A DNA stretch of 59,907 nt from IMG/VR virus record IMGVR_UViG_3300033141_002124, positions 1 through 59,907 of that record; one strand, given 5' to 3'. Under the pieces are notes generated by a model that was not told where the DNA came from, did no database searches, and worked only from the letters and a program-made list of their open reading frames with translations. Below, piece after piece: positions 6,603 through 58,001 of the stretch (position 1 is its first letter; each line of letters opens with the position of its first letter). The translations under genes and the position numbers were made by a program. Origin of the DNA: a virus. Its lineage: Duplodnaviria > Caudoviricetes.

Positions 6603-6614
6603 AATCACATTTTA

Positions 6615-16965: not shown

Positions 16966-17488
16966 AATTCATGTAAATCACTTCTACATTGCCTTCACGT
17001 AAAATAGTTTTAGCTCTTTTAAATTTTTCACCCCATTTAGGGTCATCCCAATCTGGTTCTTTGTCACAGAACACCCTTTTAATTCCTGCCTGAACAATAA
17101 ATCCTGAACACTGGTCGCACGGACACCAATTAATATACATGTCACATCCCAATGTACTCTTACCTTGTCTTGCTGCATTAAATATTGCATTGGGTTCTGC
17201 GTGAATGAACCAATTATATTTTTCTGGTCTTTCGTGTCTTTCGGGAGCATCATCATTACATCCTCTTGGTAATCCATTAAAACCAGTTGTTACAATCTCT
17301 CTACCATTAACAATAAGGCAACCAACTTTACTTGATTGGTCTTTCGACCATTGTGCTACTTCAAGGTCAGCTATTCTCATGAAACGCAAATCCCATTTCG
17401 TTATGATGTAAGGAGAAACATACACATAATTGGTTTCTCTTTTTGCTTCTTTACCAACAATACTGTTTTTAATTATTTCAGTTTCCAT
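16937..17488 (-). CDS. dCMP deaminase
   Basis: SKD...KVG, GFNG.PRG, HAE.NA, PCxxC zinc motifs. Confidence 0.92.
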   Translation of the reverse strand: METEIIKNSIVGKEAKRETNYVYVSPYIITKWDLRFMRIADLEVAQWSKDQSSKVGCLIVNGREIVTTGFNGLPRGCNDDAPERHERPEKYNWFIHAEPNAIFNAARQGKSTLGCDMYINWCPCDQCSGFIVQAGIKRVFCDKEPDWDDPKWGEKFKRAKTILREGNVEVIYMNYDAHRQGNI

Positions 17489-18827: not shown

Positions 18828-21800
18828 TTATTCAATTGTTAATGATGATATACCGTTCTCGTCTAACTGTACCTGAATCAAATAATCAGGGTTAATTTCA
18901 ATGAGTTGTTCAACCACCAAGACCTTCTTCATCTTCAATTTGATTAGTTGTAGAATCTCTTTGAATTCATCAATTGCATTTGAATCTAACTTACCCATGA
19001 CCTCATCCAATAAGAAGATTGATGGTTTTGCTTTAACATTGATTTGATTAAGTGCAAACTTCAATACAACACTACTGAAAGTTCTTTCTTTACCACTGGC
19101 ACTGATACAATCAATAATGGCTTCAGGTCTATCATAATAAACCAACTTGGGTCTGAGGTCGTTTACATCAAGCCAGACCTTAAATGGTGCTACACTAAGT
19201 ATATTTTCCAACGTAATATTGATTTTCGGTATAATATGATTACTTAACATCTGTCTTGGAATACCGTCACGATGCACGCATTTCTTATAAAGTGCCATAA
19301 CACTATCCTGATACTCCTGAACCTTGAACTCTTCAATTAATAATTTATTACCCATTATTCTGGTTTCTTTCTCTCCAATAGATGTTTTTCTAATAAACAC
19401 ATTTTCTTTTTCATCTTCTTCTTCGACTTCAAGAATTTCAATCTTTCCTTTAGCTGCTTTGATTCCCTTTTCAATTCTCTGATTCTCTTCAATCTGCTTC
19501 AAACTATTTTCATGTCTGGTAATCTTTTGTTCCAGAATATCGATTTTCAATTGTTCATTATCAATCAGCGTTGGGACTTGATTAAGTTCGATTTGAAGTG
19601 TATTGCGTCTATCAACATCATTCTTTTCGTTGGTAAGAACACCAATATCTTTCAGAACCGCTTCCATCTCTAAATCAAGTTTGGTGATTTCCCCATTTAT
19701 TGTCACAACATTATCATCACATTTCTTTATAGCTGATTTCCAATCAGTATCAATATCATGTTGATATTCCTTCATTTCCTTGGCGAAAGCAAACATCTTA
19801 ACTTCTTTTTCCTTAACAGAATTTGTTATATGGTCTTGATGTTCTTTCTTATCGATTACTTGACCACATTCGGGACAATTTTTACTGTTCTTCAGTTTAG
19901 CTATTTCATCTTTCAGATTTCCACCATCCCTTTTCGCAGTATGAATCCTACCTTTAAGAAGTTCGATTTTGTGTTGGAAATCTGCTTTCTTTCTTTCCTC
20001 TTCTTTTATTGCAAATTTCTTTTCATAAACCTTTTGTTTATGTTCGTCACGCTTTATAATGAGATTATTTAGTTTTACTTCATCATAACTTTCTCTTAAC
20101 TCACCAATACTTTGCTGTAGAACCATCTTACGTGCCTTAATTTCAACGATTCTCTTCTTATGGTCACTTATGTCAAGTCTGGCTTCATCTACGTCCAGAT
20201 TGTAGATTTCATCGTCTATTTGATAGAGTTTCTTTGTAAGTGTTTCAATATACTCACGACCAGTTTGAATTCTGCCTTGGATATCAGGTAATTTCGTACC
20301 TTCTATTTCGGTAATTTCGCTTTGAAGTGTTGTAATTTCCTGAGTTAATGTTGCATTCTGAGTCGTTGTGAATTCAATGTTACAACTCACACGTGTTTTT
20401 TCATTCGCACGCTTCTGATATACTTTAAGACCTTCAAGTTTTTTATCAAAGATATCCAATCCACTATCATATAATAATGAATCAATAAAAACTGCCATAT
20501 CATTAGATAAATTCTGATTCAATGTATCTGAAGTCGTCATGACGATTCGCATGAAATTATCATATGTACCAATAATACCTTCGATTTTCTTTTGGGTTTT
20601 AGTTCGTCTGTCACCATCGAGTTTATCCAAGCAGTTATCATCAGTCATTTCATCATCAGGATTATTGAGAACGTAATAACTCAAGGAAGTCGGTGCTCCA
20701 TTAATTGTCCCATCTCGCTTTCTCTCGATTTTAGTAGCTTTCTTAATTCCATAATATTCACCATTGGCTTCCAATACCATGTAGGCTTCACATGAAGTCG
20801 CATCATTTCTATTATTGACGAAACGTTTATCACCAAATTTCATACGGTTTTCGGTTTCCAATGTTTTACCGAATAACAAATACGAAATGAGTTTCATAAT
20901 GGTGGTTTTACCAGCAGTATTTGCACCGTTTATTTGGAAAATACCATCAGTCTTTCGCCAATCAACATCAAGCTCACCATAAGACATGAAGTTCTTTCCA
21001 CCAAATTTAATAACATCCCATTCGATATTCTGGTCTTCAGGAACATCAATTTCATTTAAGATTTCTTCATCCAAAGCAATGATGTCATTCATTAATTGTT
21101 CATCAGTCCCAATTCTTTCCAAATAGTCCTTAAATATTTCTTGCTGAACAGCAGCATCAGTCACATTTTCTAACGTAATATTTTCATTAACATCTACGTC
21201 TTCTGATTCAATGAATTCGTTTTTATGAGAAATTGTGAGATTTTTATGTTCCTTAAATAAGTAACCTTTGGTGTAGTCAATAAGTTTTCGTTCATTTTCT
21301 TTGGTACGTGTTTGTGGTAGCGTACCCCAGACAAATCTGAGTTTCATATATTTAGTTGGATTCTCTACCTCAAAATCCAAATCATCAAAATCAGTATATG
21401 GTGTTATTTTAATATTCTTAAAACTATAATTATTAGGTATTTCAATTTCAGCAGTAGTCTGCTTAATTATATCCCAAAGCAAATAACCATGAAAAGCATC
21501 ATCACCCTCTGATACGTCTTGTGAAATAAGAGACCCACAATATGCTTTCTTATTATCTTTATCAAGGTATTGCATTCTATGAATATCTCCGAAGAACGAA
21601 TATGTACCTTTGAAGTCACTGATTTTATAATATGACTTGCTTTTCATTTCGAAATCAGTGGTTGACATGCAACCAGTAATAGGGTCATGGAAAAGGTCAA
21701 TATTAACTCTGGCATCCTGTCCTTGATAAGCAAGAAGTTTCTTACCTTCCTTAGTTTTCCAAGGGTTATTGTTTTTCTCACCATGATGCCAAACTGCCCA

Positions 21801-22169
21801 AGTCACGTTTTCATCAACATAAAAACCTGTCTTATCATAATATTCAACATCAATATCACCAAGCGTTTCAACAATCGCTTTAATACTATCCACACGTTTG
21901 AGATTTTTCTTACGACAATCATGATTACCTCTGGTTGTTCGTACAGGAGCGATTGTAGCCAATTCTTTAAGGAAATTGTGAGCCATGATTAATTGCTCAC
22001 CCTGTAAGTCAAGATAGTCATGAACAAGGTCACCAACAATTATAATTCTATCAGGTTTTTGTTTCTTTAAAGATGTGATTAATCTTTTAAATACTTGTTG
22101 ATATTCTTCATTTCTTGTAGGTGTTTTTCGTATGTGAATATCTGCGAGATGCGCAATTGTTTTAATCAT
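18828..22169 (-). CDS. Fused SbcD/Mre11 nuclease - SbcC/Rad50 ATPase (gp47-gp46-like)
   Basis: N-terminal DIH, GD, GNHD, GDIH phosphoesterase motifs; Walker A GANTAGKTT; Zn hook CPECG; signature SGKE; Walker B LLDE. Confidence 0.92.
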   Translation of the reverse strand: MIKTIAHLADIHIRKTPTRNEEYQQVFKRLITSLKKQKPDRIIIVGDLVHDYLDLQGEQLIMAHNFLKELATIAPVRTTRGNHDCRKKNLKRVDSIKAIVETLGDIDVEYYDKTGFYVDENVTWAVWHHGEKNNNPWKTKEGKKLLAYQGQDARVNIDLFHDPITGCMSTTDFEMKSKSYYKISDFKGTYSFFGDIHRMQYLDKDNKKAYCGSLISQDVSEGDDAFHGYLLWDIIKQTTAEIEIPNNYSFKNIKITPYTDFDDLDFEVENPTKYMKLRFVWGTLPQTRTKENERKLIDYTKGYLFKEHKNLTISHKNEFIESEDVDVNENITLENVTDAAVQQEIFKDYLERIGTDEQLMNDIIALDEEILNEIDVPEDQNIEWDVIKFGGKNFMSYGELDVDWRKTDGIFQINGANTAGKTTIMKLISYLLFGKTLETENRMKFGDKRFVNNRNDATSCEAYMVLEANGEYYGIKKATKIERKRDGTINGAPTSLSYYVLNNPDDEMTDDNCLDKLDGDRRTKTQKKIEGIIGTYDNFMRIVMTTSDTLNQNLSNDMAVFIDSLLYDSGLDIFDKKLEGLKVYQKRANEKTRVSCNIEFTTTQNATLTQEITTLQSEITEIEGTKLPDIQGRIQTGREYIETLTKKLYQIDDEIYNLDVDEARLDISDHKKRIVEIKARKMVLQQSIGELRESYDEVKLNNLIIKRDEHKQKVYEKKFAIKEEERKKADFQHKIELLKGRIHTAKRDGGNLKDEIAKLKNSKNCPECGQVIDKKEHQDHITNSVKEKEVKMFAFAKEMKEYQHDIDTDWKSAIKKCDDNVVTINGEITKLDLEMEAVLKDIGVLTNEKNDVDRRNTLQIELNQVPTLIDNEQLKIDILEQKITRHENSLKQIEENQRIEKGIKAAKGKIEILEVEEEDEKENVFIRKTSIGEKETRIMGNKLLIEEFKVQEYQDSVMALYKKCVHRDGIPRQMLSNHIIPKINITLENILSVAPFKVWLDVNDLRPKLVYYDRPEAIIDCISASGKERTFSSVVLKFALNQINVKAKPSIFLLDEVMGKLDSNAIDEFKEILQLIKLKMKKVLVVEQLIEINPDYLIQVQLDENGISSLTIE

Positions 22170-32441: not shown

Positions 32442-35400
32442 TTAAAACTCACCTGTTCCAGAAATCTCATAAAATACATCATGAGTGTCTGGGTCACCAT
32501 ATGTGATATTTGATGTTTGACTTGTAGTATACCATGTAGGAATACTTGCCCATCTCCAACGTTCATCTTTAACATGTTGATTACCATCAACCCACGCATA
32601 AATAGCATTAAATCTAAGCACATATGTTCCTGTTGTTGGGATACTCCAATCAACTTCTGCATGTTTTGTATATGGTGAAAATACCTGTGATTCAACTAAT
32701 GTAGTTCCATTATATAATTTAAGTGCACCACCAAATCCTGTATCAAATTCATCAACACCAGTCCAATCCAGTGAAACAGTGAAACCAAATTCTGGTGGTG
32801 GTGGTGCGCTACCAGTTACAACGGTTTCAACATCACCATAACCAGTTTTAATGTTCGTGTCAAGTGGATAAAGACCGTTTTCAATAAATGCTCTGTAATA
32901 AGTTAATGTATTTGGTAATAATCCACTTGCGTTCGCAGTAAAGGGACTACCTGTATTTCCAATGTGATAGTCTTTTTTAACTGTCGAATTTGTATTTGTT
33001 ATCGTAAGACTTCCTGCTTGTGACGCATTTTGTGTGTAAACCATACCATATCTTAATATGTTCGAAGGAGTGCCAGCAACATAAGTATTATGTGGAGTAT
33101 CAAAACCAGTTCCACTAAGTAACATAAGTGGATTAGTGTCTGTTGTTACACTATATGCGACAGCAGGTTCTGTACCTATCATTGCTGTCCTTGGACTACC
33201 ATAATATGCAGTTCCACCAACAACCATATATGCACGATATTCATAAGTTGAATTGTAATCAAGTCCAGTAAGATTTGAAACATTGAAGTAATTAACCGAA
33301 AGCGGTCCTGCTGCTGGTGAAGATGGTTGATATGACCAAGGAAGTGATGGGATTTTTCTATATTGTATCGCATAATTTGATATATCTTCATATCTTACAA
33401 TATCAATACCACCAATATGTAATAATTGATTACCAACCACAGTACCTATCTTTGTCTCAATACTTGGGTCTGGTAATGGTGCTTGGGGTGTTGTGAATGA
33501 ACGTATATTACCAGTAGCACCAGTTGAAAGTGATTCGATAAACGCACGATAATCATACCAAGTATCATAAGCCAGTCCATCTAACGTCATACTGAAATTA
33601 TTGACCGTAAGTGCAGGATTAGGTGGGATTGTCTTTGATATTCTTGTCCAATTATCTTCCATTGTTTCTATTTCAAAATCAATTCCTTCTAATAAGTTTT
33701 CTAATCCAATTGGAAGTGCGTTACCATATGGATAGTAAGGATATTTTAGTTTATAATCAATACCATATTCAATAACCTCATTCCATCCTATAATGTTTTC
33801 ACCACCAGTTGTAAAACTACCCAACACACCCTGTGTTGTTTCAACATACAGTTGTGTGGGTGGAGGTGGAGGTGCGGGTGTTTCTTGAGCAATACTAAAT
33901 GTAGCACCATCAGTACCAAAATATTGCATTAACGGATTACCCCTTTTATCTATTGTTATTGACCCATTAGCATATAAATTTACACCTCTTTTATACCAAT
34001 GCTTCTGTTTCGTAAAAATACTGTTTCTAATTAATAACCCACCTCTTCTCAATATAATTGTTGCCGACAATAATTGGTCAACAAATCTCTGGAAGAAAGC
34101 ATTATATTTACTCAGGAACGGATATAGGTTCTGGAACGTATATCCATTAGATTGTAATGGGTCGTCATCTGGAAGAAGTGCTCTTTCCAAATATGTTTCA
34201 TATAATTTCAATATTGTTGGATACCAACCACCTTTAAAATCGGTAACAACTTTTCTATTTCTAACGTTTACCATTTTCCTCTGAACCAATTCGAGGAATT
34301 CCAAAAACGATAATTCACTAATATCACCAAGTCCAAACACATCATTTATAACTGGATTAAATGCTCCTGCTCCACCAACAATATAATATGCACTAATTAC
34401 AGTACCAAATCTAAGTCCTCTTGGTAAGAAAATCTCGTATGGATTCTGCACATTAACGTTATAATCAGTAATTGGTTCTAAAGCGATTCCATCAACTAAA
34501 AATTTAACATCACTTGCTTGATTTACTCTGTAATTAAGTTTATATACGTATTTGTTTGCGCTATTATTGAAATAAATCTTACTACTATTAAAACTATCGA
34601 TTCTAATTACTTCACTTCTTAAATTAATTTCATTCGTGTTCTCCACATGAAGATAAGAAATTTGCACATCGGGGTTCTGATTAAGATATGCAATAACATC
34701 TGGATTCTGAATAATAATTTGATTTGTTCCACCAGTCGAATTTGCTGGGTCAAGAATATAATCAGCAACGAATTGAGGCGTACCTTTAGTAAGTGCAATA
34801 CCGTTAATTGTTAATTGGACATCACCATGTGGAAAACTTGGTAACGGAATATATGTTCCTCCCAAAATTGCTTTAACACGTGTCACAATATAATCAACTG
34901 TCATTGTTAAACCAGTTAATGTTGTTGCACCTGAATTAGTAAATGTTACCTGAATCACGTCAGAAGGACGTGTTCCACCACTAAGTTCATATATTGTAAA
35001 ATATTTCCCATTTACTTCATAATCTGCTTGATATGTAATTCCTGATGTAGTTCCAGTAGTATTACCAGTTGAAGGAGCATTTAATAAAATTCCATTATAT
35101 CTTACTTCAAAATTACCCTGATGATTATAATCAAAAGGTAGTGAGAATGTATTACCTGTTTGTGGTAATGATGAAATGTTAACATATGAATATGGTAATG
35201 TGTATCCACTTGAGTTGGCAGCAAAATCTTTTTGAATATATTCATAAACATCATATTCAATACCACGTGCAGTATCAAGTGAAATATCGACTTCTTTGGT
35301 ATTAATCACCAATTTACTGTCTTCTTGATAATATTGTGGTGTTGTACTGTGAATTCTTGTAGTTGCTCCACTTTGTTCCCATGATTTCTTATTATCGGGT

Positions 35401-37067
35401 GTTTGTTTAAGATTGAACCCAGCCATACGAAATACATCGAGATATGCCTGACCACTATCACTATTACCACTGAGTTGAAAATAGAAATCATTGGTTTCCA
35501 ATGGTGCAACAGGATATCCTTCGGTATCATACGGTAATGAATTTGAAGGAAAATCAGCTTGTGCGAGAGATACGGTATTTGGATTAATCTTACCATCTAC
35601 GGTATATACGTATTCTGTGATGTTAATGAAAGGTTCTGGAATACCAATTAACAAGAACATTGATTTTATTGCTTGACGAGTACCTTTTGATTTCCAAAAA
35701 TAACTTGTGTTATTAATAATTCTTCTCCAGAGTTCAATATCAATTTCTGCTGGTAAGATATTCTCATTTAAATTTCTTTCCGTATCATCTACAGTTAAAA
35801 ATCCTTCAACTAATTCACTTTCATTCACCAACGAAAAATAATCCCAACCAAAGGTATTTGCCATATTCTTTATTAATTGGTCAGGTATGTTATTTAATTT
35901 ATTATATGTAACCTTATTAATGTTAACCAATGAATCAATAAACTGTCTGAGTTGGTCAAATTCTCTTCCATATAATCTCAGTAGTTTAGGTATTTTACCA
36001 TCATCAGTATAGTCATACATTTTAAGTGAATCAGGTGTTAAGAATCTTGCAATTAAATCAGTTTTTATTTTATCATATTTCTCAGCAATAGTCAATACAA
36101 TTTTCAAAAATCTTTGATATGTTGGTGTATTGACATCAATATTATATTTATCACTGGTTGTCCAGAGAATTTGCGAATCACTATAAATAATTTTACCGTC
36201 TTCAAGCTGTGTTGGGTTTTTTAAGGTGAACACAAATCCATCAGTATTATCTCTTTCTGAAACCATATTTTGTTCATAACTATTAAGGAATGCTCGGAAT
36301 TCTTCAAAAGTAACATTATTTGGTCTGATATGATAATCAATATTAGCAGTAGTTCCAGTTCCCATTAATGCAAAAGGATTGCCTTCGACCTGTAATTTCA
36401 AATGGTTATTCATTGAAATTGTTGTTCCAGTATAGTCAAGAGAACTATTTACAGTATTTCCAGTATAACCAACAATTATAAATAATGTATCTGGTTCAAG
36501 ACTCGACCAAATGACATACTTTTCATATGAATCATTTAAGTTTTTTAACTCATTATCATCAGGTATACTCGTATTACCATCATTAATAACTAAACCAAAG
36601 GTATTAATAGTTGACTCCGTTGGAACATAAAATGTCGAGACATTCGAAACAATATCATAGTTAAGTCCTTTATACGTTGGATTTCCACCTATTTCTTTTT
36701 GTGAATTAGCGAACAACGACCCCGGGTATGCCAAAATCACATTCTGAATACTTGTTCTAAGAAATTCATATGCCGACCCATATCTAACAAAAGTATTTAA
36801 ATCTGATTTATCGAGATTCAATACGGCATTTGTTGTATAGTCATGAATTATTTCAGACTGTATTTCTGAAACATTAAGTGTTTCTAATGTAACTGGACGA
36901 ACAAATGAACTCAAAGAATTGGTGTAATCAATAGTTACCTTATTATCAAAGTTCGTTGTAACGAAAAACTTTCCAAAAGAAAATATTGTATTGGATGGGG
37001 TATCATTAAAATACTCCCCATTTAAATTCCCATTAAGTTGTGTTTTTATTACTTTTACCTTTGCCAC
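32442..37067 (-). CDS. Large baseplate wedge/fibre protein with FN3-like C-terminal repeats
   Basis: 1541 aa; KSKGTRQAIKSMF (tail protein I/gp7-like); repeated L..(D/N)T.Y.YRA(F/Y) FN3 signatures. Confidence 0.7.
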   Translation of the reverse strand: MAKVKVIKTQLNGNLNGEYFNDTPSNTIFSFGKFFVTTNFDNKVTIDYTNSLSSFVRPVTLETLNVSEIQSEIIHDYTTNAVLNLDKSDLNTFVRYGSAYEFLRTSIQNVILAYPGSLFANSQKEIGGNPTYKGLNYDIVSNVSTFYVPTESTINTFGLVINDGNTSIPDDNELKNLNDSYEKYVIWSSLEPDTLFIIVGYTGNTVNSSLDYTGTTISMNNHLKLQVEGNPFALMGTGTTANIDYHIRPNNVTFEEFRAFLNSYEQNMVSERDNTDGFVFTLKNPTQLEDGKIIYSDSQILWTTSDKYNIDVNTPTYQRFLKIVLTIAEKYDKIKTDLIARFLTPDSLKMYDYTDDGKIPKLLRLYGREFDQLRQFIDSLVNINKVTYNKLNNIPDQLIKNMANTFGWDYFSLVNESELVEGFLTVDDTERNLNENILPAEIDIELWRRIINNTSYFWKSKGTRQAIKSMFLLIGIPEPFINITEYVYTVDGKINPNTVSLAQADFPSNSLPYDTEGYPVAPLETNDFYFQLSGNSDSGQAYLDVFRMAGFNLKQTPDNKKSWEQSGATTRIHSTTPQYYQEDSKLVINTKEVDISLDTARGIEYDVYEYIQKDFAANSSGYTLPYSYVNISSLPQTGNTFSLPFDYNHQGNFEVRYNGILLNAPSTGNTTGTTSGITYQADYEVNGKYFTIYELSGGTRPSDVIQVTFTNSGATTLTGLTMTVDYIVTRVKAILGGTYIPLPSFPHGDVQLTINGIALTKGTPQFVADYILDPANSTGGTNQIIIQNPDVIAYLNQNPDVQISYLHVENTNEINLRSEVIRIDSFNSSKIYFNNSANKYVYKLNYRVNQASDVKFLVDGIALEPITDYNVNVQNPYEIFLPRGLRFGTVISAYYIVGGAGAFNPVINDVFGLGDISELSFLEFLELVQRKMVNVRNRKVVTDFKGGWYPTILKLYETYLERALLPDDDPLQSNGYTFQNLYPFLSKYNAFFQRFVDQLLSATIILRRGGLLIRNSIFTKQKHWYKRGVNLYANGSITIDKRGNPLMQYFGTDGATFSIAQETPAPPPPPTQLYVETTQGVLGSFTTGGENIIGWNEVIEYGIDYKLKYPYYPYGNALPIGLENLLEGIDFEIETMEDNWTRISKTIPPNPALTVNNFSMTLDGLAYDTWYDYRAFIESLSTGATGNIRSFTTPQAPLPDPSIETKIGTVVGNQLLHIGGIDIVRYEDISNYAIQYRKIPSLPWSYQPSSPAAGPLSVNYFNVSNLTGLDYNSTYEYRAYMVVGGTAYYGSPRTAMIGTEPAVAYSVTTDTNPLMLLSGTGFDTPHNTYVAGTPSNILRYGMVYTQNASQAGSLTITNTNSTVKKDYHIGNTGSPFTANASGLLPNTLTYYRAFIENGLYPLDTNIKTGYGDVETVVTGSAPPPPEFGFTVSLDWTGVDEFDTGFGGALKLYNGTTLVESQVFSPYTKHAEVDWSIPTTGTYVLRFNAIYAWVDGNQHVKDERWRWASIPTWYTTSQTSNITYGDPDTHDVFYEISGTGEF

Positions 37068-48415: not shown

Positions 48416-49009
48416 TTATTTAAATTTTATGATTTCCTCTTGAATGATATTCAATAATTTATTTGTTGAATTGAAATTAACCACACCTTCACCGATAAGT
48501 GGACGAATACTACCCTTATCAACAAAATTCAATGTGTAGGTCACATCATCAGATAACTTGTTTTTGATTTTGGTGTACTCAGCAATCTTTTCAGCATTCC
48601 TATCCATGAAATCATCATACACAACAATCTCTTTCAAATCTTGATTATAATTCTCGATTCTCAATATAATATCACCTTTATCTTCACGACCTCTTTTCGT
48701 AATAAGGTCATCGACAGTAATTCCATTCAGTTTTAAAATATTTTCAAGTTCAGGACGCAGTTTCTCCATACGAGAAGTCAGAATAATCGTACTGGTATCA
48801 GGGTCAGCCATGTCTGTTTGAAGTTTTGCAAGAATGTTTGGGAATGGTTTGATTTCAAATACATCGGTGTCAAGACTTTCTCTGCGCCCCCACCATCCAA
48901 CGTGTGGATATGGTTGACCCATTTTCTCTTCCCATTGTACTTTTCCTGTTTCTGGTTCTGGGGAATCAATTAGTGTTCCATCAAAATCATATACTGCCAA
49001 TCTTTTCAT
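48416..49009 (-). CDS. HAD-superfamily phosphatase (Swiss-army-knife RNA-repair-like)
   Basis: YDFDGTL.DSP, GWW, LTSR, K, YDD motifs. Confidence 0.8.
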   Translation of the reverse strand: MKRLAVYDFDGTLIDSPEPETGKVQWEEKMGQPYPHVGWWGRRESLDTDVFEIKPFPNILAKLQTDMADPDTSTIILTSRMEKLRPELENILKLNGITVDDLITKRGREDKGDIILRIENYNQDLKEIVVYDDFMDRNAEKIAEYTKIKNKLSDDVTYTLNFVDKGSIRPLIGEGVVNFNSTNKLLNIIQEEIIKFK

Positions 49010-49520: not shown

Positions 49521-52500
49521 TTATTCTTCACTTACTTTTCCAGTTAAATTCAATGGAAACCCAAGAGGCTTCCAGTCTTTCAGTTTATTTGACATAAATG
49601 GTTTACCACCATCGGCACGATTAACAGCAATTGTTATGTGTGGTTTTGGATTATTAGAATGATAACCTTCAACACCAACTGCCATAACCAGTTCGTCCAT
49701 CGCATAATCAATCACTCTCAACGAAATCTCAATGTTCTTCTCCATATCTTCCTGCGCATCACTACCGTTTTCAAGTGCACCCATCATTATTGTCATGTGA
49801 TGTGCAACAACTTCCCAACCTTCAGGTATCATCGGACTTAAAACCTTAAGTAAACTGGCTCTTGATTTATCATCAAGAACAACTGCGCTATAACTCACTC
49901 TTTTCACTTCTTCTTCTCCTAATAAATTTCTATCTGTTAATGCCCAATATAATTCTTTCCTTAATTTTTCATCAACACTGAAGTCTTCATAATTATTCTG
50001 AAGAAATTCCAGTACTGATTCATGTGATGCATCATGATATCCACTATCTTTCCCACCTTGATTATTCCATTTATCGTATTCCTTAACAAAAAAATCAATA
50101 GTTACTTGCTTTCCATTGACATTCCATGTCTTTGGTTGTATACCATCGTAATTAGGGTATCCTTCTTGAATTTCCTTATCTTTCTCTCTCACCAAAGATA
50201 GTAATTCTTCTCGGTCATTCCTAACATTATCACTATAAACTTTAATTAATAATGATTTCAACATATCACCAATTTCCCTACCTTGTAATCCCATACTCAT
50301 TAAAACGTTTCCATCAATAGCGAGTTCACCAAAATCTTTTGGATATTTTCCAGTCAACAATTCCTGTGCTGCTCTTTTTATTGGTTCAGGTAAAATCTCA
50401 CTGTTTAATGTATTTGGTAAAATCTTGAAGATGTTATGTGCAAGAGTTCTTGCTGTAACATTATCTATATTATCATCGGCTTGAAATGCTTGTTGAAATG
50501 CTTTTAATTCTTTATATGTATCAATATCACATTTCAGTTTCGATTTACAATATTCCGCAATGTCTTGAACAAGATGATGTGCTGTAAGCCAAAGAAATTC
50601 TCCCATTGTTTTAACAACATTCCATTCTTTACCCATATATAAACCACCATCACCGTTAAATATTTGTGGGGTAAGTCCTAAATCTTTAAGTAAATACGCT
50701 CCTTCAAACGCATTACCTTTCTTAACAATTTTATCAAACTCAATTAATATCCTTTCAGGTGGAATTTCTTTAATTCGACCTGCATTCTTTTTAATCATTT
50801 CTCTGGTCTCGTCATCAATCTTGAAACCAAAACGTGCAGCGAATTGAACAGCACGTAACATTCTCAAAGGGTCATCACTAAATGCTTCTGGATTAACGAT
50901 ACGAATAATTTTATTTTTAAGGTCTTCTTGACCACCAAAAGGGTCAATTATATTACCATCAATATCTTTAGCAATCGCATTAATCGTAAAATCCCTGCGT
51001 TCCAAATCTTTTTCAAGTGGAAGTTCGTGGTCTGATGACACATCAAATCCTTTATGACCACCTTCACCAGTCGCTTTTTCAGTTCTTGGAATCGCCACAT
51101 CAATTTCTTCTGATGCACCTTGTGGCTTAAATTTTAACACACCAAATTGTTTACCCACTGCGTCAACTTTTCCATATTTTGACATGAGTGTACCTAACTT
51201 ATCCATTGGAATGCCTGTCACAAGAATATCAAGGTCTTTACTTTCTTTACCTAAAAACTCATCACGTACAGCACCACCAACGCTAAATATCTTACCGCCA
51301 AGTTGTTCGACCTCTTCTTTAAAAGGTAAGTCTTGTAATGACATTATATTCTCATTCATATCGGGTACAAGACTACTAAAATATTCTGAGACTTCCAAAT
51401 CATCTTCATTCACAGAACCAAATTCCAAATTATTAATGTCGCCTTGATTACAAGCAACACTGGTATTACCCAAACCTGCAAGCTGACATTTCCTCTTTAC
51501 TTTAACGGTTTTTGAACCAGTACCAAAAGATTTGTCTCTTTCGATTAATGCGTTATCACCATTAATCTTATTATCATAATATGTATATAATCTTCTCGTT
51601 AATTTTTTCTTATTATCAGCATTCAAATTTCGAATAAATTCTCCATTAAATGGTTTATTATGCTCTATTGAATCTTGAAACAATTTTGAAATGAAAACAT
51701 TAAAGTCTGAATATTTTTCATATCTTTTTTTATTAGCATGTATATTTTTTAATCCTTCGAGATAATATGCATTATATTCTTCATCTCTATTATAATATGA
51801 ATCGTTTGATGATTTGTAGGTATCACTATATTTAGTATCATCCAGATAATGGACAAATTCGTGGACAAATGTATCTTCGTTCACCCAAGATGCAAATCTA
51901 ATTCGGGCAAAATGTATATCCGATTCGACATTTTGTTTTGGTGGTTCGTCACTAAATGATTGTCGCTTCTCTAATATAAAAAAACAAAGTGTTTTTGTTT
52001 TAGGGTCAAAAAATGCCCTATTATTTTTCATTAAAGGAAAAAATGCTATTTGTAAATCAATTATACTTATTTGGTTTATATTAAATCCGACACCACTAAA
52101 CATTCTTTCACCATTCGTAGTATTGAATTCAAGTTCAATACTTTCAAATTTAATGTTATTAATATTCTCTTTAATTTTCTTATATAAATTCTTCCCTAAA
52201 TTAGTGGTCTTTATATCAGAACCAAAATCTTCTCCTAACATATATTCGTCATCGGTTGCATCTCCTTTAACATGATTATATTCAAGGTCTTCATACATCG
52301 CAACATTAGCATCGAGGTCATTATTAATGCTTGGTGAAGTATCGTTGGTATTGTAAGGGGGAAAACCGTCTTGTCCAACATCACTATCTGTACTGAATTT
52401 AGCACTACCGTCTTCATCTACTTCGACACCCATTTTTTCAGCACCATGAGGTTGCATAAAAAAATCTGTAAATCCAACATCAAAGAATCCAATTACTCCA

Positions 52501-54812
52501 CTTGGTTTATATCCAAGATTTTCTGGATTATAAAAATCATAACTATCAATCCCATGTTCTCTGAGTTCTTCAACGATTCTTAAAATACTAAAAAAGAATT
52601 CTCCGTCTTGACTGTTCTTTTTAAAATAGTTATCAACTTTACTTTTATCAATTGCGTCATCATTATATTGATGACCATCCAAATATGAATCCAATGCTTC
52701 TTTATAATCGGTATCAAATATATTCTTGAAAACGTAATCAAGTCTGTCATACATTCGTTTAAAATTGGCTTCATCGGGAACGAGTTTTTCTAAAATAATC
52801 GCATATGTTTTCCATTCTCCCTCTGGTATGTTTTCTGGGGTTACCTCAAACACACGATAAACATCTGCAATATATTTAAGTTTTTTACCAACCAGTTTCA
52901 GATTCTCATAAGCCTCACTATTATCTTTTGTGATTTTCAATACTTTATTATCCCCAATATCGTATGCAACACCAATTGTACCATGTCCAAGATATTTAGG
53001 TTCTTGAATACCTAACTTAGTTGTAATTCTATTAGCAATTCTATCCGCTTTATCTCTTGGGTAATCTTCTTCGAGTTGTTCTTCAGTAATGTTTTCAGGT
53101 AATTGAATAACATCATCATCACCAATATTTGGTTCATCAACACCATAATAACCACCAGTGTCAAAGAATTTTAAAACACCGTCTTTATATCCAAGATTTC
53201 TTTTTTCAACATAGTCTTTTGATTTAATTCCATATCCCAATAATTCTTTGCGAATATTTAAAATACCAACAAGAAACTCATATGCTGCTTGCCTATCGGT
53301 TTGACTAACATTTGCTGCTGGATTATCAGTCAATACATGTTTTGCTATTTCAAGCATCTGATTATAATCAAATCTCTTAGGAATTCTTATTGAAGATAAA
53401 ATATCAGTATATCCCATTCCTGCTGGTTGAATTTTCTCTATATCATCATCAAATTTTCTGAATTTCTCAAGTGGTTTCTCATTAACATTTTCTTGCATAA
53501 TAACAAAAATAGATTTATTTGTAGCTGTATCAAGAACCTTATATAAATTAAAAATTGTTGCAATGTTTTGTGGTCTTACTCTCAATAATTTTGATGCAGC
53601 ATCAGCTTCACTAACATCCGTAGTTAATTTCATTACGAGATTATCATTTATTTGATAAGCAAAACCATTCGCACCACCACCAATATATTTTGGTTGTGTC
53701 AGACTTAATTTATTGGCAATCTCTCTCGCCAATTCATCAGCATAATTTCTATCAGTTAATGTATCGGGGTCAACAGCAGGTATATCTTCATTAATAACAT
53801 AGCTTTCACTTAATAATGGGTCTCTATTATAGAATCCTCGTCTAATAAGATATTCTTGTAACTTCAATAAGTTCCCGTAAAACTGTTCTTTATTATCTAC
53901 GTGATTCAGTGTTTCTCTTATGTTATTTACACATTCATGGAAACTATCAGCCAGTACAGAAATACCTTCCACTGATTTGTTAGGATATTTATCACGTTTC
54001 GAAACCAGATTAACGAAACCTTCATTAATAACTGCATTACTATTATCACCACCATCACTAACACTGTAAGGCATTTGTGCCCACATACCTGTTCTAATGT
54101 CTTGTCCACCACCAGCATCGCTTAATATGTCATCATTACCATCAGCATAATTGTAGAGTTCATACATCTGATATCTATTCCTCTTCTTTCTATCAGGACT
54201 ATAATGGGTATCATAAACTTCATCATTAAGACCGTAATCAGTTAAAACAATTGCTGGTTGTCCATCACGAAGAACCTCACCATAACTACTTGGTCTTCCC
54301 ATATCACCAGCATTTTGACCGTAATTGGCTATAAAATTACTTAAATCTTGTGCAAACTCGTTCTCGTAAAGAAACTCTTCTTCTTCACGAGTTATGTAGT
54401 TCTCTTCAAATCTTTTATTTTGTCCTTTACTTTGTACTTCATAATTTATTAAAAAATATCCCAATATATCGAGATTCGGAATTTCTGTTAATTCTTCAAT
54501 TCGTTTCTTTGTAACTTTTTTTGCCTTTTCCGCAATCAACCAAGTGTCATCATCTGCACTATCAAATACTTCAGTTACGATATGTTGAGTATCACGATAA
54601 TAACCAGCACCTGCTTCAGCACCATTCTGTGCAACGCCTTTGGCGTTCATTGCAAGTTTTAGTACCTTCTCACCATCAATATCATACACTCTTCTGCCAG
54701 TACCACTACCAATTCTTGGTAATCTTTCATCGGCATATCTCATCCTACCAGCATAGGAATTTATATTCAGAAATTCTGGTAAGAAATTTTGTTTAAATTC
54801 ATCATAAGTCAT
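49521..54812 (-). CDS. Multidomain polyprotein: 3 protein-kinase-like domains, zincin, CCA-adding/poly(A)-pol nucleotidyltransferase, 2H phosphoesterase
   Basis: Kinase motif sets IGSGTG/VLK/DYG, IGGGANG/VMK/NLG/DTG, LGHGTIG/VLK/NLG/DVG; HEFVH; VGGAVRD-DLD-RRDFTINA-DPLRMLRA; HHMT and PHIT. Confidence 0.88.
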   Translation of the reverse strand: MTYDEFKQNFLPEFLNINSYAGRMRYADERLPRIGSGTGRRVYDIDGEKVLKLAMNAKGVAQNGAEAGAGYYRDTQHIVTEVFDSADDDTWLIAEKAKKVTKKRIEELTEIPNLDILGYFLINYEVQSKGQNKRFEENYITREEEEFLYENEFAQDLSNFIANYGQNAGDMGRPSSYGEVLRDGQPAIVLTDYGLNDEVYDTHYSPDRKKRNRYQMYELYNYADGNDDILSDAGGGQDIRTGMWAQMPYSVSDGGDNSNAVINEGFVNLVSKRDKYPNKSVEGISVLADSFHECVNNIRETLNHVDNKEQFYGNLLKLQEYLIRRGFYNRDPLLSESYVINEDIPAVDPDTLTDRNYADELAREIANKLSLTQPKYIGGGANGFAYQINDNLVMKLTTDVSEADAASKLLRVRPQNIATIFNLYKVLDTATNKSIFVIMQENVNEKPLEKFRKFDDDIEKIQPAGMGYTDILSSIRIPKRFDYNQMLEIAKHVLTDNPAANVSQTDRQAAYEFLVGILNIRKELLGYGIKSKDYVEKRNLGYKDGVLKFFDTGGYYGVDEPNIGDDDVIQLPENITEEQLEEDYPRDKADRIANRITTKLGIQEPKYLGHGTIGVAYDIGDNKVLKITKDNSEAYENLKLVGKKLKYIADVYRVFEVTPENIPEGEWKTYAIILEKLVPDEANFKRMYDRLDYVFKNIFDTDYKEALDSYLDGHQYNDDAIDKSKVDNYFKKNSQDGEFFFSILRIVEELREHGIDSYDFYNPENLGYKPSGVIGFFDVGFTDFFMQPHGAEKMGVEVDEDGSAKFSTDSDVGQDGFPPYNTNDTSPSINNDLDANVAMYEDLEYNHVKGDATDDEYMLGEDFGSDIKTTNLGKNLYKKIKENINNIKFESIELEFNTTNGERMFSGVGFNINQISIIDLQIAFFPLMKNNRAFFDPKTKTLCFFILEKRQSFSDEPPKQNVESDIHFARIRFASWVNEDTFVHEFVHYLDDTKYSDTYKSSNDSYYNRDEEYNAYYLEGLKNIHANKKRYEKYSDFNVFISKLFQDSIEHNKPFNGEFIRNLNADNKKKLTRRLYTYYDNKINGDNALIERDKSFGTGSKTVKVKRKCQLAGLGNTSVACNQGDINNLEFGSVNEDDLEVSEYFSSLVPDMNENIMSLQDLPFKEEVEQLGGKIFSVGGAVRDEFLGKESKDLDILVTGIPMDKLGTLMSKYGKVDAVGKQFGVLKFKPQGASEEIDVAIPRTEKATGEGGHKGFDVSSDHELPLEKDLERRDFTINAIAKDIDGNIIDPFGGQEDLKNKIIRIVNPEAFSDDPLRMLRAVQFAARFGFKIDDETREMIKKNAGRIKEIPPERILIEFDKIVKKGNAFEGAYLLKDLGLTPQIFNGDGGLYMGKEWNVVKTMGEFLWLTAHHLVQDIAEYCKSKLKCDIDTYKELKAFQQAFQADDNIDNVTARTLAHNIFKILPNTLNSEILPEPIKRAAQELLTGKYPKDFGELAIDGNVLMSMGLQGREIGDMLKSLLIKVYSDNVRNDREELLSLVREKDKEIQEGYPNYDGIQPKTWNVNGKQVTIDFFVKEYDKWNNQGGKDSGYHDASHESVLEFLQNNYEDFSVDEKLRKELYWALTDRNLLGEEEVKRVSYSAVVLDDKSRASLLKVLSPMIPEGWEVVAHHMTIMMGALENGSDAQEDMEKNIEISLRVIDYAMDELVMAVGVEGYHSNNPKPHITIAVNRADGGKPFMSNKLKDWKPLGFPLNLTGKVSEE

Positions 54813-55621: not shown

Positions 55622-56578
55622 TTATTTGAAAAAAGTCATCTTTTTATGTGGAATTGATGGAGCATTTGTTTCTTTTATTTCTGGTTCTGGTTGATTTGCA
55701 GCGTCTTGTGCCTTCATTCTTAAATCTCTCTGTGTTTTATTTTTCGCATCATTGAAGAATTTATCATCAGCAGGTGCATTTTTTTTAACCAGACTATCGT
55801 ATAAATACGGTAATGACCCAACAATTGCATTATCGGGTATATTTTGTTTATCCTTATCTTTTGCCAACATTAATTGAAAGTTATTCTTGTCATCAATAAC
55901 AACCAGATAATTTCCATGAGCAGTTTTTTGTACTCGACTTGCAACATCTCGTAATTTAACGACATCATCAGCAGTAATTTGTTTACTATTCTTATTACCT
56001 CTTCTAATACTATCCCATTTTTCTTTGTCTCGGTCTGCTCTTGAAACCTTGTCAATTTCTTGGTCTTTATCGTATTTCATGTCGAAATCAGGTTCTGTTT
56101 TCGTTGAAACATATGCCTTAACACTTGTCATATCGTCATCATCACCTTCATGATAACCGGGCGGTATCATCGGAAGACCGTTTTTATCATTAAATTTTTT
56201 ACCAGTTGGATATATTTTTGAAATCTTGTCTACGTTGAACATTCTCCAACCCGGTTTCGCACCCTCACGGTCACTCCAATAGTCATGACCCATACTATCT
56301 GGACGGGTTGCTCTATTACTGAAATGCCAACTATTTTTTGCATTGTCTTGCCATGCTCTGAGAACTATATGTCCAGCAGCATTTGTGCCAAGCACATATG
56401 GTCTCACCGTGCGATAACCAGTTGCATTTTTACCTTCTTCATTATCACCATCGTAATAAAGATAAATCCACTCATGATTGTTAATCGCATCAACAATACC
56501 ACTTTCGCCAACGCCTTCAGTAAGAAGATGACGAAAATTTTTTATGTTTTCGAATAATATTTTTAGTTCGCTTTTCAT
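55622..56578 (-). CDS. WYL-domain protein
   Basis: I..AI....IYLYY...R.VRPY.LG...LRAW...GWRMFNVDKI. Confidence 0.75.
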   Translation of the reverse strand: MKSELKILFENIKNFRHLLTEGVGESGIVDAINNHEWIYLYYDGDNEEGKNATGYRTVRPYVLGTNAAGHIVLRAWQDNAKNSWHFSNRATRPDSMGHDYWSDREGAKPGWRMFNVDKISKIYPTGKKFNDKNGLPMIPPGYHEGDDDDMTSVKAYVSTKTEPDFDMKYDKDQEIDKVSRADRDKEKWDSIRRGNKNSKQITADDVVKLRDVASRVQKTAHGNYLVVIDDKNNFQLMLAKDKDKQNIPDNAIVGSLPYLYDSLVKKNAPADDKFFNDAKNKTQRDLRMKAQDAANQPEPEIKETNAPSIPHKKMTFFK

Positions 56579-57159
56579 TATACTCTATCACTTCCAGCAC
56601 AATATTCATTCCCGGGGGTGTAAAGATTAGCATTCTTTGCAATTGAACAACCTCTGCTTGCAAAATCAATACATGTACCAGCTTGTTCACCCTGTTCTGG
56701 TTCTCTACCTTTATCATCTCCGTCTGCAATTGTATCACCATGCCCGGGGAGATATTGATTATTTGGAGTGTAACCATCAGCATTTTTTGACATTAATTTA
56801 TTTCTCATTTCAATGTCTTTATTAGTTCCAATTGAACCACCTTGTGCTTCAGGGTCTCTACCTTTACAATCACCATCAGAGATAGTGTCTTCGTGACTCG
56901 GACCGTACTCATCTCCATAAGTATAACCATCGGCATTCCTTGCCATTAATTTATTTCTTGTTTCGATATCGATATTAGTTCCAATTGTACCACCATCTCT
57001 TTCAGGGTCTCTACCTCTATTGTCACCATCAGAAATTGTATCTGGGGTTGTAGGAAGATATTCCTTACCGGGTATGTATCCATCAGCGTTTTTTGCTATT
57101 GAACACTTTCTGAAATCGGCACTACTTGCTAATAATCTGCTGCTTTCTTCGTCTGCCAT
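56578..57159 (-). CDS. Tandem-repeat protein (3+ copies of an approximately 51-aa unit)
   Basis: Unit (K/R)NADGY..G.EY.P...DTISDGD.KGRDPE..GG.IGTN.DIE.RNKLM. Confidence 0.8.
   Translation of the reverse strand: MADEESSRLLASSADFRKCSIAKNADGYIPGKEYLPTTPDTISDGDNRGRDPERDGGTIGTNIDIETRNKLMARNADGYTYGDEYGPSHEDTISDGDCKGRDPEAQGGSIGTNKDIEMRNKLMSKNADGYTPNNQYLPGHGDTIADGDDKGREPEQGEQAGTCIDFASRGCSIAKNANLYTPGNEYCAGSDRV
56600..57100 (-). repeat. Degenerate approximately 153-bp coding tandem repeat
   Basis: e.g. TTCAGGGTCTCTACCT, CATTAATTTATTTCT and ATTAGTTCCAATTG recur at a 153-bp period. Confidence 0.75.
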
Positions 57160-57203: not shown

Positions 57204-58001
57204 TTATTCATATTTTTTAAATACGAGTGTTATGTATTCAATTAAATGAGGAACGATATTAAGATATTCCATCTCACTTACATCATACCAACCATAATTA
57301 GTATTTTCATCATCAAGAGTAATGTCCGTTGGGTCATCCTCGTATCTGCAAGCAAATATGTGTTCAATACTATCAGCATGTCTTTCAATACTAAATGATT
57401 TGGTAAATTTCTTAAGTTCTAAACCAGTTTCTTCCTCAATTTCTCTTTCAACTGCTTGTTGTGGTGTTTCGCCTTTATCAATACCACCACCAACAAGACC
57501 CCATTTACTTGGCATCCAAGGTGCTTTCTCACCTCTTTTCAATAAAAGGATTTTATTATCTTTATTTACAATAACCGCAACACTATTTTTTTGTTTTTCT
57601 TTTTTCTCCTTTTTTTCGGCTTCATTCATCACATCATTATGTTGTCTATTCACATTAAATGCTTTCAAATCCGAAGTCATATCATTGGTTATATCACGTC
57701 TAACTTCTCTACTGGTTTTCACAGCATTTCTGTCTTGATTTAACGTGGTTTCAATAAACGCTTTCATTGGTTGACCACCAGCAAGTGTGAATTGTGTGTT
57801 ATCACCAGTTTGTGGATTAAAGTAGTCAAAATAATTCTTCAATCTCTTCATTGCTTGATAGGTGATAACACCGTTCTTAAGCATGAATTTAGCTCGTTTT
57901 ACGCCCTCTCCTTGCGGATTGGATACCAAGGCTGTCTGGATACCTTTTAACACGTCTGAGGGTATCCTATACGATTTATCATATAGTTCTTGGTTAGCCA
58001 T
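57204..58001 (-). CDS. Two-domain protein with C-terminal Nudix hydrolase
   Basis: Nudix box GGIDKGETPQQAVEREIEEETG; ILLLKR. Confidence 0.88.
   Translation of the reverse strand: MANQELYDKSYRIPSDVLKGIQTALVSNPQGEGVKRAKFMLKNGVITYQAMKRLKNYFDYFNPQTGDNTQFTLAGGQPMKAFIETTLNQDRNAVKTSREVRRDITNDMTSDLKAFNVNRQHNDVMNEAEKKEKKEKQKNSVAVIVNKDNKILLLKRGEKAPWMPSKWGLVGGGIDKGETPQQAVEREIEEETGLELKKFTKSFSIERHADSIEHIFACRYEDDPTDITLDDENTNYGWYDVSEMEYLNIVPHLIEYITLVFKKYE

Follow-up and report, generated by a model that had tools for sequence, protein, structure and literature searches.

Organization of the Locus and of Its Kinase-like Units

The stretch of DNA analyzed here, referred to below as the window, comprises positions 1 to 59,907 (59,907 bases) of the IMG/VR virus record IMGVR_UViG_3300033141_002124, which is ~20% complete according to CheckV and has a G+C content of ~33%. 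Since the genes found elsewhere in the window include those of baseplate wedge proteins, a fused SbcD-SbcC-like nuclease, a primase, a sigma factor, and a NUDIX hydrolase, its setting is that of a large tailed phage. The element considered here is an open reading frame (ORF) on the minus strand (49521..54812), taken from the ORF list and its translation, that encodes a single polyvalent multidomain protein of 1763 residues (P0001), with homologues that share up to 70% identity over residues 1–878. The N-terminal half of this protein carries three tandem protein-kinase-like (PKL) domains of a minimal type, named here units 1, 2, and 3, and the remainder includes a CCA-adding enzyme and a 2H phosphoesterase-like domain. 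An earlier note had placed three tandem, mutually divergent PKL domains between positions 52460 and 54740. That segment encodes, on the minus strand, residues 25–785 of the ORF, and every motif named in the note can be located in the translation; absent from the note were the union of these domains in one multidomain protein and the loss of most of the kinase fold's C-lobe.

Unit 1 consists of residues 20–215 (54168..54755, on the minus strand as are all modules of the protein described below) and is defined by structure prediction, by comparisons with Foldseek and VIA-align, by a profile match to the kinase SteC, and by conservation. Its glycine-rich loop (GSGTGR, residues 35–40) is followed by a VLK motif with Lys52, by Glu66, by Asp170 with Ser175 five positions after it, and by the motif Asp192-Tyr-Gly194; Gly37, Arg40, Asn56, Gln62, and Asn63 are further key residues. 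Unit 2, defined by structure prediction, VIA-align, and conservation, extends over residues 346–585 (53058..53777), with the folded core at ~360–560. It includes a glycine-rich loop (GGGANG, residues 377–382), a VMK motif with Lys395, then Glu402, Asp533 with Asn539 six positions downstream, and Asp551-Thr-Gly553. The corresponding elements of unit 3 (residues 586–800, 52413..53057), which is defined by BLASTP, VIA-align, and conservation, are GHGTIG (residues 609–614), a VLK motif with Lys626, Glu633, Asp759 with Asn765 (again at a distance of six), and Asp778-Val-Gly780.

Units 2 and 3 share 31% identity over 211 columns (BLASTP, E 2e-22), and their family profiles align in hhalign with a probability of 100% (E 2.5e-47). 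Judged by these sequences, they are clearly paralogues that arose by duplication. The profile of unit 1 can be aligned with that of unit 3 over 159 columns (E 7.3e-5, probability 62.5%), with the G-loop, the lysine, the catalytic loop, and the DxG motif all in register, whereas its alignment with unit 2 is limited to the G-loop and strand β3 (E 4.2e-4, probability 34%). Unit 1 is thus a remote relative and a separate subtype, and the distinction drawn earlier between two similar units and a third one of another kind holds. Among five full-length orthologues (n = 5 only), the median identity is 46–48% for units 2 and 3, compared to 64–66% for unit 1 and for the CCA-adding domain.

Fold of the Three Units

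Two alignments built from homologues were folded with AlphaFold2 (AF2), one for residues 1–345 (model A1, 46 rows) and the other for residues 346–800 (model A2, 50 rows). The predicted local distance difference test (pLDDT) score of model A1 is 87.4 overall and 92–98 in the blocks covering residues 1–200, and that of model A2, which comprises units 2 and 3, is 91.7. In these models, a helical insert is located between the hinge and the catalytic loop of the units. Comparison of model A2 with the PDB using Foldseek yielded 179 matches at E ≤ 1e-3, and all 43 of those listed are either MAP kinases (JNK, p38) or APH(2'') and APH(4). The structure comparison with VIA-align (VIA) covered 48,161 representative chains, with the best 50 rows examined. 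For unit 2, the matches include ULK4 (Z 10.3, root-mean-square deviation (rmsd) 3.2 with 140 residues aligned), PKR (Z 9.4), BRAF (Z 9.3), and Mps1 (Z 9.3); the rows for this unit align over model residues 11–215, and 19 chains reach Z ≥ 8 in the A2 search. Unit 3 (model residues 231–441) is matched by APH 4pdy (Z 7.8) and BSK8 (Z 7.5). For the two units together, 49 of the best 50 rows are named kinases or kinase-fold proteins, the remaining row being an axoneme chain whose title does not give its identity.

For unit 1, 11 Foldseek matches reach E ≤ 1e-3; among the 46 rows listed in total, 45 represent kinase-fold proteins. In the VIA search over all representative chains, the top score is Z 7.7 (ULK4), with kinase-fold proteins in 48 of the best 50 rows. 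When VIA was applied to the top 1000 chains found by Foldseek, the leading match was SAICAR synthase (3nua, Z 8.6, 141 residues), with APH(2''), IRAK4, PKR, and PRPK behind it; further SAICAR synthases are also present among the Foldseek and the VIA-wide matches. Overall, the matches of unit 1, which include Rio and ArkI, have Z values of 6.5–8.6. Since such values are weak when taken alone, the case for unit 1 rests on their combination with the motifs, with the profile link to unit 3, and with the match of the unit-1 profile to the minimal effector kinase SteC in the PDB (E 1.2e-4). Structure prediction followed by Foldseek thus gave a kinase-like result for each of the three domains, as had been supposed, and a kinase-like fold of all three can be accepted with high confidence.

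The fold is nevertheless incomplete when compared with that of a canonical kinase. The ranges of the matched chains end a few residues past DFG in every alignment (for example, PknB 3–161, Pim1 32–192, and BRAF 452–600). As the matches end just after the DxG motif and the units are only 200–240 residues long, the activation segment must be absent, as must helices F to I. A full C-lobe of the Hanks type, consisting of the activation segment, the APE motif, and helices F to I, is accordingly found in none of the three units.

Searches of family libraries did not assign the units to the kinases. Scans of Pfam and NCBIfam with the whole protein and with each unit produced no kinase match, PHROGs gave only phrog_4301 (function not known) for unit 1 (E 2.8e-9) and no kinase label, and phmmer against the PDB sequences found nothing but MCM10 (E 0.22). 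SteC was also matched in the PDB profile search with units 2 and 3 and is the only kinase that the two profile searches of the PDB found. The unit-3-like units of two homologues (P0151 and P0103) match Pfam APH, and the latter also matches ABC1. In the profile search with units 2 and 3, matches to the penicillin-binding protein PBP2X (E 6.7e-4 to 0.025) were located on the C-terminal half of unit 3; they were judged to be due to chance, because no such fold was found in the structure searches.

Conservation of the Active Site

Conservation was assessed in segments cut from 151 proteins and retained if at least 80% of the unit was covered, which left 109 segments of unit 1, 44 of unit 2, and 91 of unit 3, the query included. 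In unit 1, Lys52, Glu66, and Asp192 are present in all 109 segments and Asp170 in 108, and the site of the metal-binding Asn is occupied by Ser175 in 95 segments and by Asn in seven. Unit 1 also has invariant residues of an atypical kind, since Arg40, Gln62, and Asn63 are found in all segments and Asn56 in 108 of them. Units 2 and 3 keep the full set of residues, including the metal-binding Asn for which unit 1 has Ser. In unit 2, Lys395, Glu402, Asp533, and Asn539 are invariant (44/44) and Asp551 is present in all but one segment (43/44). In unit 3, Lys626 is invariant (91/91), followed by Glu633 (90/91), Asn765 (89/91), Asp778 (88/91), and Asp759 (83/91), the last being replaced by Glu in the other eight segments. 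Since the catalytic residues are invariant or nearly so, no unit looks like a dead pseudokinase, and, as far as this pattern of sequence conservation can tell, all three are most likely active ATP-dependent kinases.

Homologous Proteins and Gene Linkage

A HMMER pass with residues 1–900 over 1.84 billion cluster representatives (one per cluster of 50% identity) identified 2020 homologues at E ≤ 1e-3, including 935 at E ≤ 1e-10 and 174 at E ≤ 1e-30. The best 150 of the 2020 are modular mixes of the same units, with kinase arrays of one to five units; five metagenomic proteins (P0102, P0111, P0103, P0125, and P0151) carry three to five tandem kinase domains of either the unit-1 or the unit-3 type. 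A Pfam scan of 26 long homologues revealed PolyA_pol in 19, GNAT in nine, 2H families in eight, ART-PolyVal in three, SAM lyase and APH in two each, and a cytidylyltransferase in one. The combination of kinases with a CCA-adding enzyme and a 2H domain, for which GNAT, ART-PolyVal, and SAM lyase are swapped in by homologues, defines the product of the ORF as a polyvalent protein. Relatives in which unit 1 is fused to other modules are found on jumbo-phage contigs of up to 366 kb, one of them labeled as Bacteroidales bacterium, and in their sources they are named either "hypothetical" or "tRNA nucleotidyltransferase / GNAT / 2'-5' RNA ligase". No kinase label and no precomputed Pfam kinase family is present among the homologues listed. 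Other searches were less productive. A DNA search of a phage collection gave short matches to the CCA gene only, tblastn of the same collection found just two hypothetical proteins of Xanthomonas jumbo phages, both for unit 1, and a word-indexed protein search with unit 3 yielded one fragment only.

A scan of IMG/VR with the alignment of unit 1 found 446 stretches with relatives, and 80 of these loci were annotated using hidden Markov models of the units themselves; as many of the 80 are close kin, the counts that follow do not represent independent events. An ORF with one, two, or three kinase units is present in 30, 21, and 29 loci, respectively, and this variable number, together with the paralogy of units 2 and 3, agrees with the expansion by duplication that had been suggested previously. 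Unit 1 and the CCA-adding enzyme share one ORF in 35 loci. In 25 others, the enzyme has an ORF of its own within the locus, usually the next gene or genes downstream, and is followed by a small 2H gene. The order kinases, CCA-adding enzyme, 2H is thus kept, in fused or adjacent form, in 60 of the 80 loci. The 20 loci without a CCA gene include 14 solo unit-1 genes and three loci in which the ORF reaches the end of the DNA examined; among all 16 solo unit-1 genes, a CCA gene is located nearby in just two. In a series of these loci (L005–L066), the gene set forms either one giant ORF of up to 2693 residues (3198 residues from stop to stop in L055) or two or three ORFs. Since the splits are located at the same borders, between the kinases, the CCA-X part, and the 2H domain, fusion and fission appear to recur at fixed joints. 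In five distant homologues (P0077, P0091, P0093, P0095, and P0096), the order is shuffled, and the kinase unit is still found beside the CCA-adding enzyme.

Remaining Modules of the Protein

The region that connects units 1 and 2 (L1, residues 216–345, 53778..54167) consists, in the AF2 model, of a linker of low confidence (low pLDDT for residues 220–259) followed by a helical module (pLDDT of 89–97 in the blocks for residues 261–330). This helical module accompanies unit 1 in the multidomain relatives, and scans of Pfam found no family match for L1. After unit 3, an acidic linker (M1a, residues 801–880, 52173..52412) is defined by 111 segments, including that of the query, with an isoelectric point (pI) of 4.05 compared to the family median of 4.09, and nearly all multidomain relatives have it behind their kinase units. 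The region that follows (M1b, residues 881–1095, 51528..52172) is rare, being common to just one further protein among the homologues compared (at least 75% coverage). A Pfam scan of this region gave no match. It includes an HExxH motif (HEFVH, residue 984), and an atlas search with residues 870–1100 gave leads only, all of them below 0.9 (LPD23 0.88, Peptidase_M78 0.84). M1b may represent a zincin-like peptidase by which the polyprotein is cleaved.

The next segment (LNK, residues 1096–1160, 51333..51527), a short and highly conserved element derived from a consensus of 47 segments, separates the kinase half from the remainder of the protein and includes a Cys motif that starts at residue 1109. 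The whole pattern, GS..V.VKKKC.LGGLGNTS.ACNQGDI.NL, is located at positions 51393–51527 of the window (residues 1096–1140), and among 246 proteins it is found as a single copy in 139 and as two copies in one. This element might act as a signal for processing or packaging, or it might form a small knot bridged by Cys.

The domain of the CCA-adding enzyme, or class II tRNA nucleotidyltransferase (residues 1161–1560, 50133..51332), is supported by Pfam, NCBIfam, and PHROGs. The Pfam families PolyA_pol (E 2.2e-23, 83.4 bits with a cut-off of 23) and PolyA_pol_RNAbd (E 3.9e-14, 52.6 bits with a cut-off of 22) are both matched, as is phrog_2244 (E 3.5e-70). The NCBIfam model of the CCA tRNA nucleotidyltransferase matches residues 1163–1546 (E 5.8e-48) with 163.9 bits, which is below its equivalog cut-off of 290 bits, so that the specificity could be either CCA-adding or A-adding. 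A search for tRNA genes in the window returned none. A conserved module of 80 residues (X, residues 1561–1640, 49893..50132; 55 segments, including the query) connects this domain with the 2H phosphoesterase-like domain (residues 1641–1763, 49524..49892), which is characterized by two H-x-T motifs (HHMTIM, residue 1671, and PHITIA, residue 1724). The match of the latter domain to Pfam tRNA_lig_CPD (E 5.2e-4, 20 bits) is under the cut-off of 23 bits, and its homologues exceed the cut-offs of either 2_5_RNA_ligase2 or tRNA_lig_CPD. The second ORF downstream of the large gene (48416–49009, minus strand, 197 residues) matches HAD_SAK_1 below the cut-off (E 2.4e-4).

Comparison with Known Systems

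Polyvalent-protein kinases without a C-terminal subdomain have been described in phages of Bacteroidetes and Verrucomicrobia, with proteins proposed as their targets (Iyer et al. 2017, PMC5512222). As in the units described here, the C-terminal subdomain of these Kinase-PolyVal domains (PF18762) is lost while the residues responsible for ATP binding and phosphotransfer are kept, and the domains are located in giant phage proteins beside GNAT, ART, and 2H domains, as well as in stand-alone copies. However, Kinase-PolyVal has a conserved His before the catalytic Asp, separated from it by an insert, and a Gln in the final N-lobe strand, neither of which residues is present in the consensus of the units, where the catalytic Asp is preceded as G-D in unit 1 and as S-x-D in units 2 and 3; this comparison was made from the description given by Iyer et al. 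2017. The PF18762 model (cut-off of 27 bits) did not match the three units at E ≤ 10, nor did it match the window record (0/1) or five complete relatives of 325–363 kb (0/5), and a single match (E 0.024) was found among 46 homologues. Neither tandem arrays of two subtypes nor a constant association with a CCA-adding enzyme comes up in the passages of PMC5512222 that were consulted, in which the term "CCA-adding" occurs 0 times. No description of a phage kinase combined with a tRNA nucleotidyltransferase and a 2H domain was found in the literature, although the web supplements of Iyer et al. 2017 may list such architectures. Among the minimal kinases found in polyvalent proteins of phages, the present units represent a new, large, and unlabeled variant, here in the form of a triple array coupled to a CCA-adding enzyme and to a 2H domain.

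Among the viral structures in BFVD, units 2 and 3 are matched first by uncharacterized phage proteins (E down to 1.9e-11) and then by T7-type "protein kinase" entries of Autographiviridae (E 8e-7 to 1e-4), including A0A7L7SMK1, which is named as a homologue of the T7 kinase (T7K) in PMC13645617. The phage kinases of the T7 type, which the earlier note had brought in for comparison, are therefore among the nearest annotated viral structures. The T7 kinase phosphorylates very broadly and disarms host defences (PMC13645617). Like the units, T7 gp0.7 is a phage enzyme with a kinase fold and without a match to Pfam Pkinase, and its N-lobe aligns weakly; an atlas search gave, as a lead, a cluster in which 11% of the members carry PF27024, the Pfam family of gp0.7. 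The hallmark motif of T7K is DPV (PMC13645617), whereas the corresponding motifs are D-Y-G, D-T-G, and D-V-G in units 1, 2, and 3, respectively. In addition, T7K consists of a single kinase with a DNA-binding shut-off domain rather than of a triple array fused to tRNA enzymes.

The Salmonella effector SteC (PDB 8jbi), as well as OspG, which is a minimal effector kinase of the same kind, provides an example of a kinase whose C-lobe is depleted. The profile of unit 1 matches SteC in the region of the G-loop and β3, including the pattern K-x-x-x-N-x-[KR]-G-I, but the match spans only ~50 residues, and SteC is found outside the top 50 structural rows for this unit. Unlike the units, SteC has retained helix F within a small C-lobe, and this lobe is needed for its activity (PMC13395416). 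The archaeal tRNA 2'-kinase ArkI (PDB 7vnx, 8yv5), a kinase-fold enzyme of 216 residues without subdomains VIII and X, phosphorylates U47 of tRNA and is encoded in an operon with tRNA nucleotidyltransferase (PMC9095486). It thus resembles the units in its small size, in the absence of the peptide-binding subdomains, and in its genomic tie to a tRNA nucleotidyltransferase. The structural matches to TkArkI and Ark1 have Z values of 8.1, 6.7, and 6.5, not above those of ordinary kinases, and no match was found at the level of sequence. ArkI is characterized by the motifs HGQ and DFE (PMC9095486), whereas the units have the catalytic Asp in the context G-D or S-x-D, followed by DxG.

A tandem arrangement of kinase domains is also known in JAK/TYK2, as well as in EGFR-KDD, and the model of units 2 and 3 aligns with such proteins across both domains (Z 7.5–8.0, model residues 19–439). 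The rmsd of 19–23 Å indicates that the placement of the domains differs, and these are unrelated eukaryotic proteins with full C-lobes. Moreover, one of the two domains is a pseudokinase in JAK, whereas all three phage units keep their catalytic residues.

Functional Interpretation

The preferred interpretation, to which we assign a probability of about 50%, is that the N-terminal half of this jumbo-phage polyvalent protein represents three active minimal protein kinases for host takeover or counter-defence. Each unit retains the ATP-binding N-lobe and, after the helical insert, both the catalytic loop and the DxG motif that binds Mg; it would phosphorylate proteins of the host, and perhaps of the phage, early in infection. 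Such phosphorylation could result in the takeover of the host or in the blunting of its defences, as it does with the T7 kinase and as was proposed for the polyvalent-protein kinases. Having arisen by duplication and diverged rapidly, units 2 and 3 may broaden the range of targets, and the CCA-adding enzyme and the 2H domain would handle damaged tRNA ends or nucleotide signals. The protein might be delivered with the phage particle; the sole hint of injection is the location of the ORF ~6 kb upstream of the baseplate genes and on the same strand, and no match to MuF was seen in the ORFs of the window that were scanned.

Several observations weigh against such a role. The peptide-holding elements of protein kinases (the activation segment, the P+1 loop, and helices F and G) are missing, and a construct of SteC ending after DGD is inactive, its small C-lobe being required (PMC13395416). 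As the PDB is rich in eukaryotic protein kinases, their top rank among the structural matches says little about the class of the substrate. The case of unit 1 is further complicated by the Ser at the metal-binding Asn site (95/109), by a SAICAR synthase as its best VIA match, the unit being as similar to this enzyme as to kinases, and by its middling Z values. The hhalign alignments with T7 gp0.7 are also weak and not significant, with E 0.0078 at a probability of 5% for the alignment of units 2 and 3, where the match falls in the unit-3 N-lobe, and with E 0.34 for unit 1. Finally, the tight link to a tRNA enzyme is as compatible with an RNA substrate as with a mixed assortment of effectors.

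As the association with the CCA-adding enzyme and with the 2H domain is conserved, some weight has to be given to the alternative named in the earlier note, in which the kinases act on RNA or on small molecules and serve the repair enzymes. The units could be RNA kinases similar to ArkI that act, most likely, on the 2'-OH or 5'-OH of tRNA and that cooperate in cis with the CCA-adding enzyme and with the 2H domain in order to repair, protect, or mark tRNA while infection proceeds. Although we consider this unlikely, the order of the three parts is kept whether they are fused or split, the distant homologues that shuffle it retain a kinase unit next to the CCA-adding enzyme, and ArkI offers a precedent for a small kinase-fold enzyme in an operon with tRNA nucleotidyltransferase (PMC9095486). 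The structural matches include not only TkArkI and Ark1, but also the RNA-linked Rio1, Rio2, RIOK3, Bud32, and PRPK; however, the ArkI proteins match no better than ordinary protein kinases do, their HGQ and DFE motifs are absent from the units, and the PDB profile searches recovered SteC alone among kinases, not ArkI. The genomic tie is itself not uniform, as no CCA gene is present in the examined flanks of 14 of the 16 solo unit-1 genes. Likewise, the ORF at 48416–49009 weakly matches the HAD phosphatase of the "Swiss army knife" RNA-repair proteins, and RNA ligases of the ATP type are found without a match to the AAA_33 kinase in two of the five complete relatives, but the RNA ligase genes of these relatives are located far from the kinase locus, and Tpt1 is present in none of the five. 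With RNA_ligase in four of these five genomes, RNA_lig_T4_1 and AAA_33 in three each, and RtcB in one, the picture of the repair partners is mixed, and a role as 5'-kinases is neither supported nor excluded by it. The acidic character of the units (pI 4.7–4.9 in the query, with family medians of 4.9–5.3) speaks only weakly against binding of RNA, because the CCA-adding domain is acidic too, and the net charge does not discriminate between the readings. In an extended form of the same proposal, which we likewise regard as doubtful, tRNA-acting units would constitute, together with the CCA-adding enzyme and the 2H domain, a phage machine for tRNA phosphorylation and repair that shields or restores tRNAs hit by the nucleases of host defence; it would be a viral counterpart of ArkI, with duplicated units serving different tRNAs or different positions in them.

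A smaller chance is given to small-molecule kinases of the APH or choline-kinase type, which would inactivate a nucleotide-derived immune messenger or an antibiotic-like anti-phage compound next to a 2H domain that cleaves cyclic nucleotides. Unit 1 has APH(2''), APH(4), methylthioribose kinase, the corramycin and capreomycin phosphotransferases, and PsiK among its top matches in Foldseek and VIA, units 2 and 3 are likewise matched by APH(2'') and APH(4), and two homologues reach Pfam APH. Nevertheless, the helical substrate-binding subdomain that follows DFG in APH is missing, the matches stop near residue 223 of the ~296 of APH, and protein kinases give better scores with units 2 and 3 (Z up to 10.3) than APH does (Z 8.1). 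The 2H domains of polyvalent proteins were proposed to counter nucleotide signaling (PMC5512222), and those of some homologues weakly match the anti-CBASS phosphodiesterase Acb1 (E 5e-5 to 6.5e-5, below the cut-off), but no candidate substrate for such kinases is known. It is similarly improbable that one or more of the units, with unit 1 the likeliest among them, are not phosphotransferases at all, and serve instead as an ATPase, in AMPylation, in ligase chemistry of the SAICAR-synthase type, or as an ATP-binding scaffold. Bud32 and Rio are examples of small proteins with a kinase fold that act mainly as ATPases. The match of unit 1 to SAICAR synthase 3nua (Z 8.6), the replacement of its metal-binding Asn by Ser, and the conservation of Arg40, Asn56, Gln62, and Asn63 (108–109 of 109), untypical of kinases, are consistent with such a use, as is the inactivity of SteC when cut after DGD (PMC13395416). 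On the other hand, the conservation of Lys, Glu, the catalytic Asp, and the Asp of DxG throughout speaks for catalysis at the usual site, the profile of unit 1 matches SteC, a true kinase, and units 2 and 3 carry the complete set of residues, Asn included.

If the units are indeed protein kinases, as we prefer, counter-defence by mass phosphorylation would extend to jumbo phages; should their substrate be tRNA, they would represent the first RNA kinases of viral origin with the fold of protein kinases. Under either reading, the three units lend themselves to expression and assay as compact and well-defined targets, and a much larger pool of phage kinase-fold domains appears to be left unlabeled by current annotation.

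Other Features of the Window

Several other genes of the window, all on the minus strand, deserve a brief description. A protein of 193 residues (56578–57159) consists of repeats of ~51 residues with the pattern NADGY..G..Y.P....DTI.DGD.KGRDPE... and has no family match; the corresponding DNA includes a tandem repeat of 153 nucleotides (2.1 copies, 72% matches). Two long ORFs are not readily classified, since the one at 32442–37067 (1541 residues) has no family match in Pfam or PHROGs, and the one at 10643–13750 (1035 residues) is matched solely near residues 428–503, by DUF3008 and by PHROGs that have no assigned function. SbcD/Mre11-like and SbcC/Rad50-like proteins are usually encoded by separate genes, whereas the ORF at 18828–22169 (1113 residues) joins a calcineurin-like phosphoesterase of the SbcD/Mre11 type to an SbcC/Rad50-like ATPase. 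A patatin-like phospholipase is encoded at 5661–6608, a dCMP/cytidine deaminase at 16937–17488, and a NUDIX hydrolase with an N-terminal extension of 130 residues at 57204–58001.

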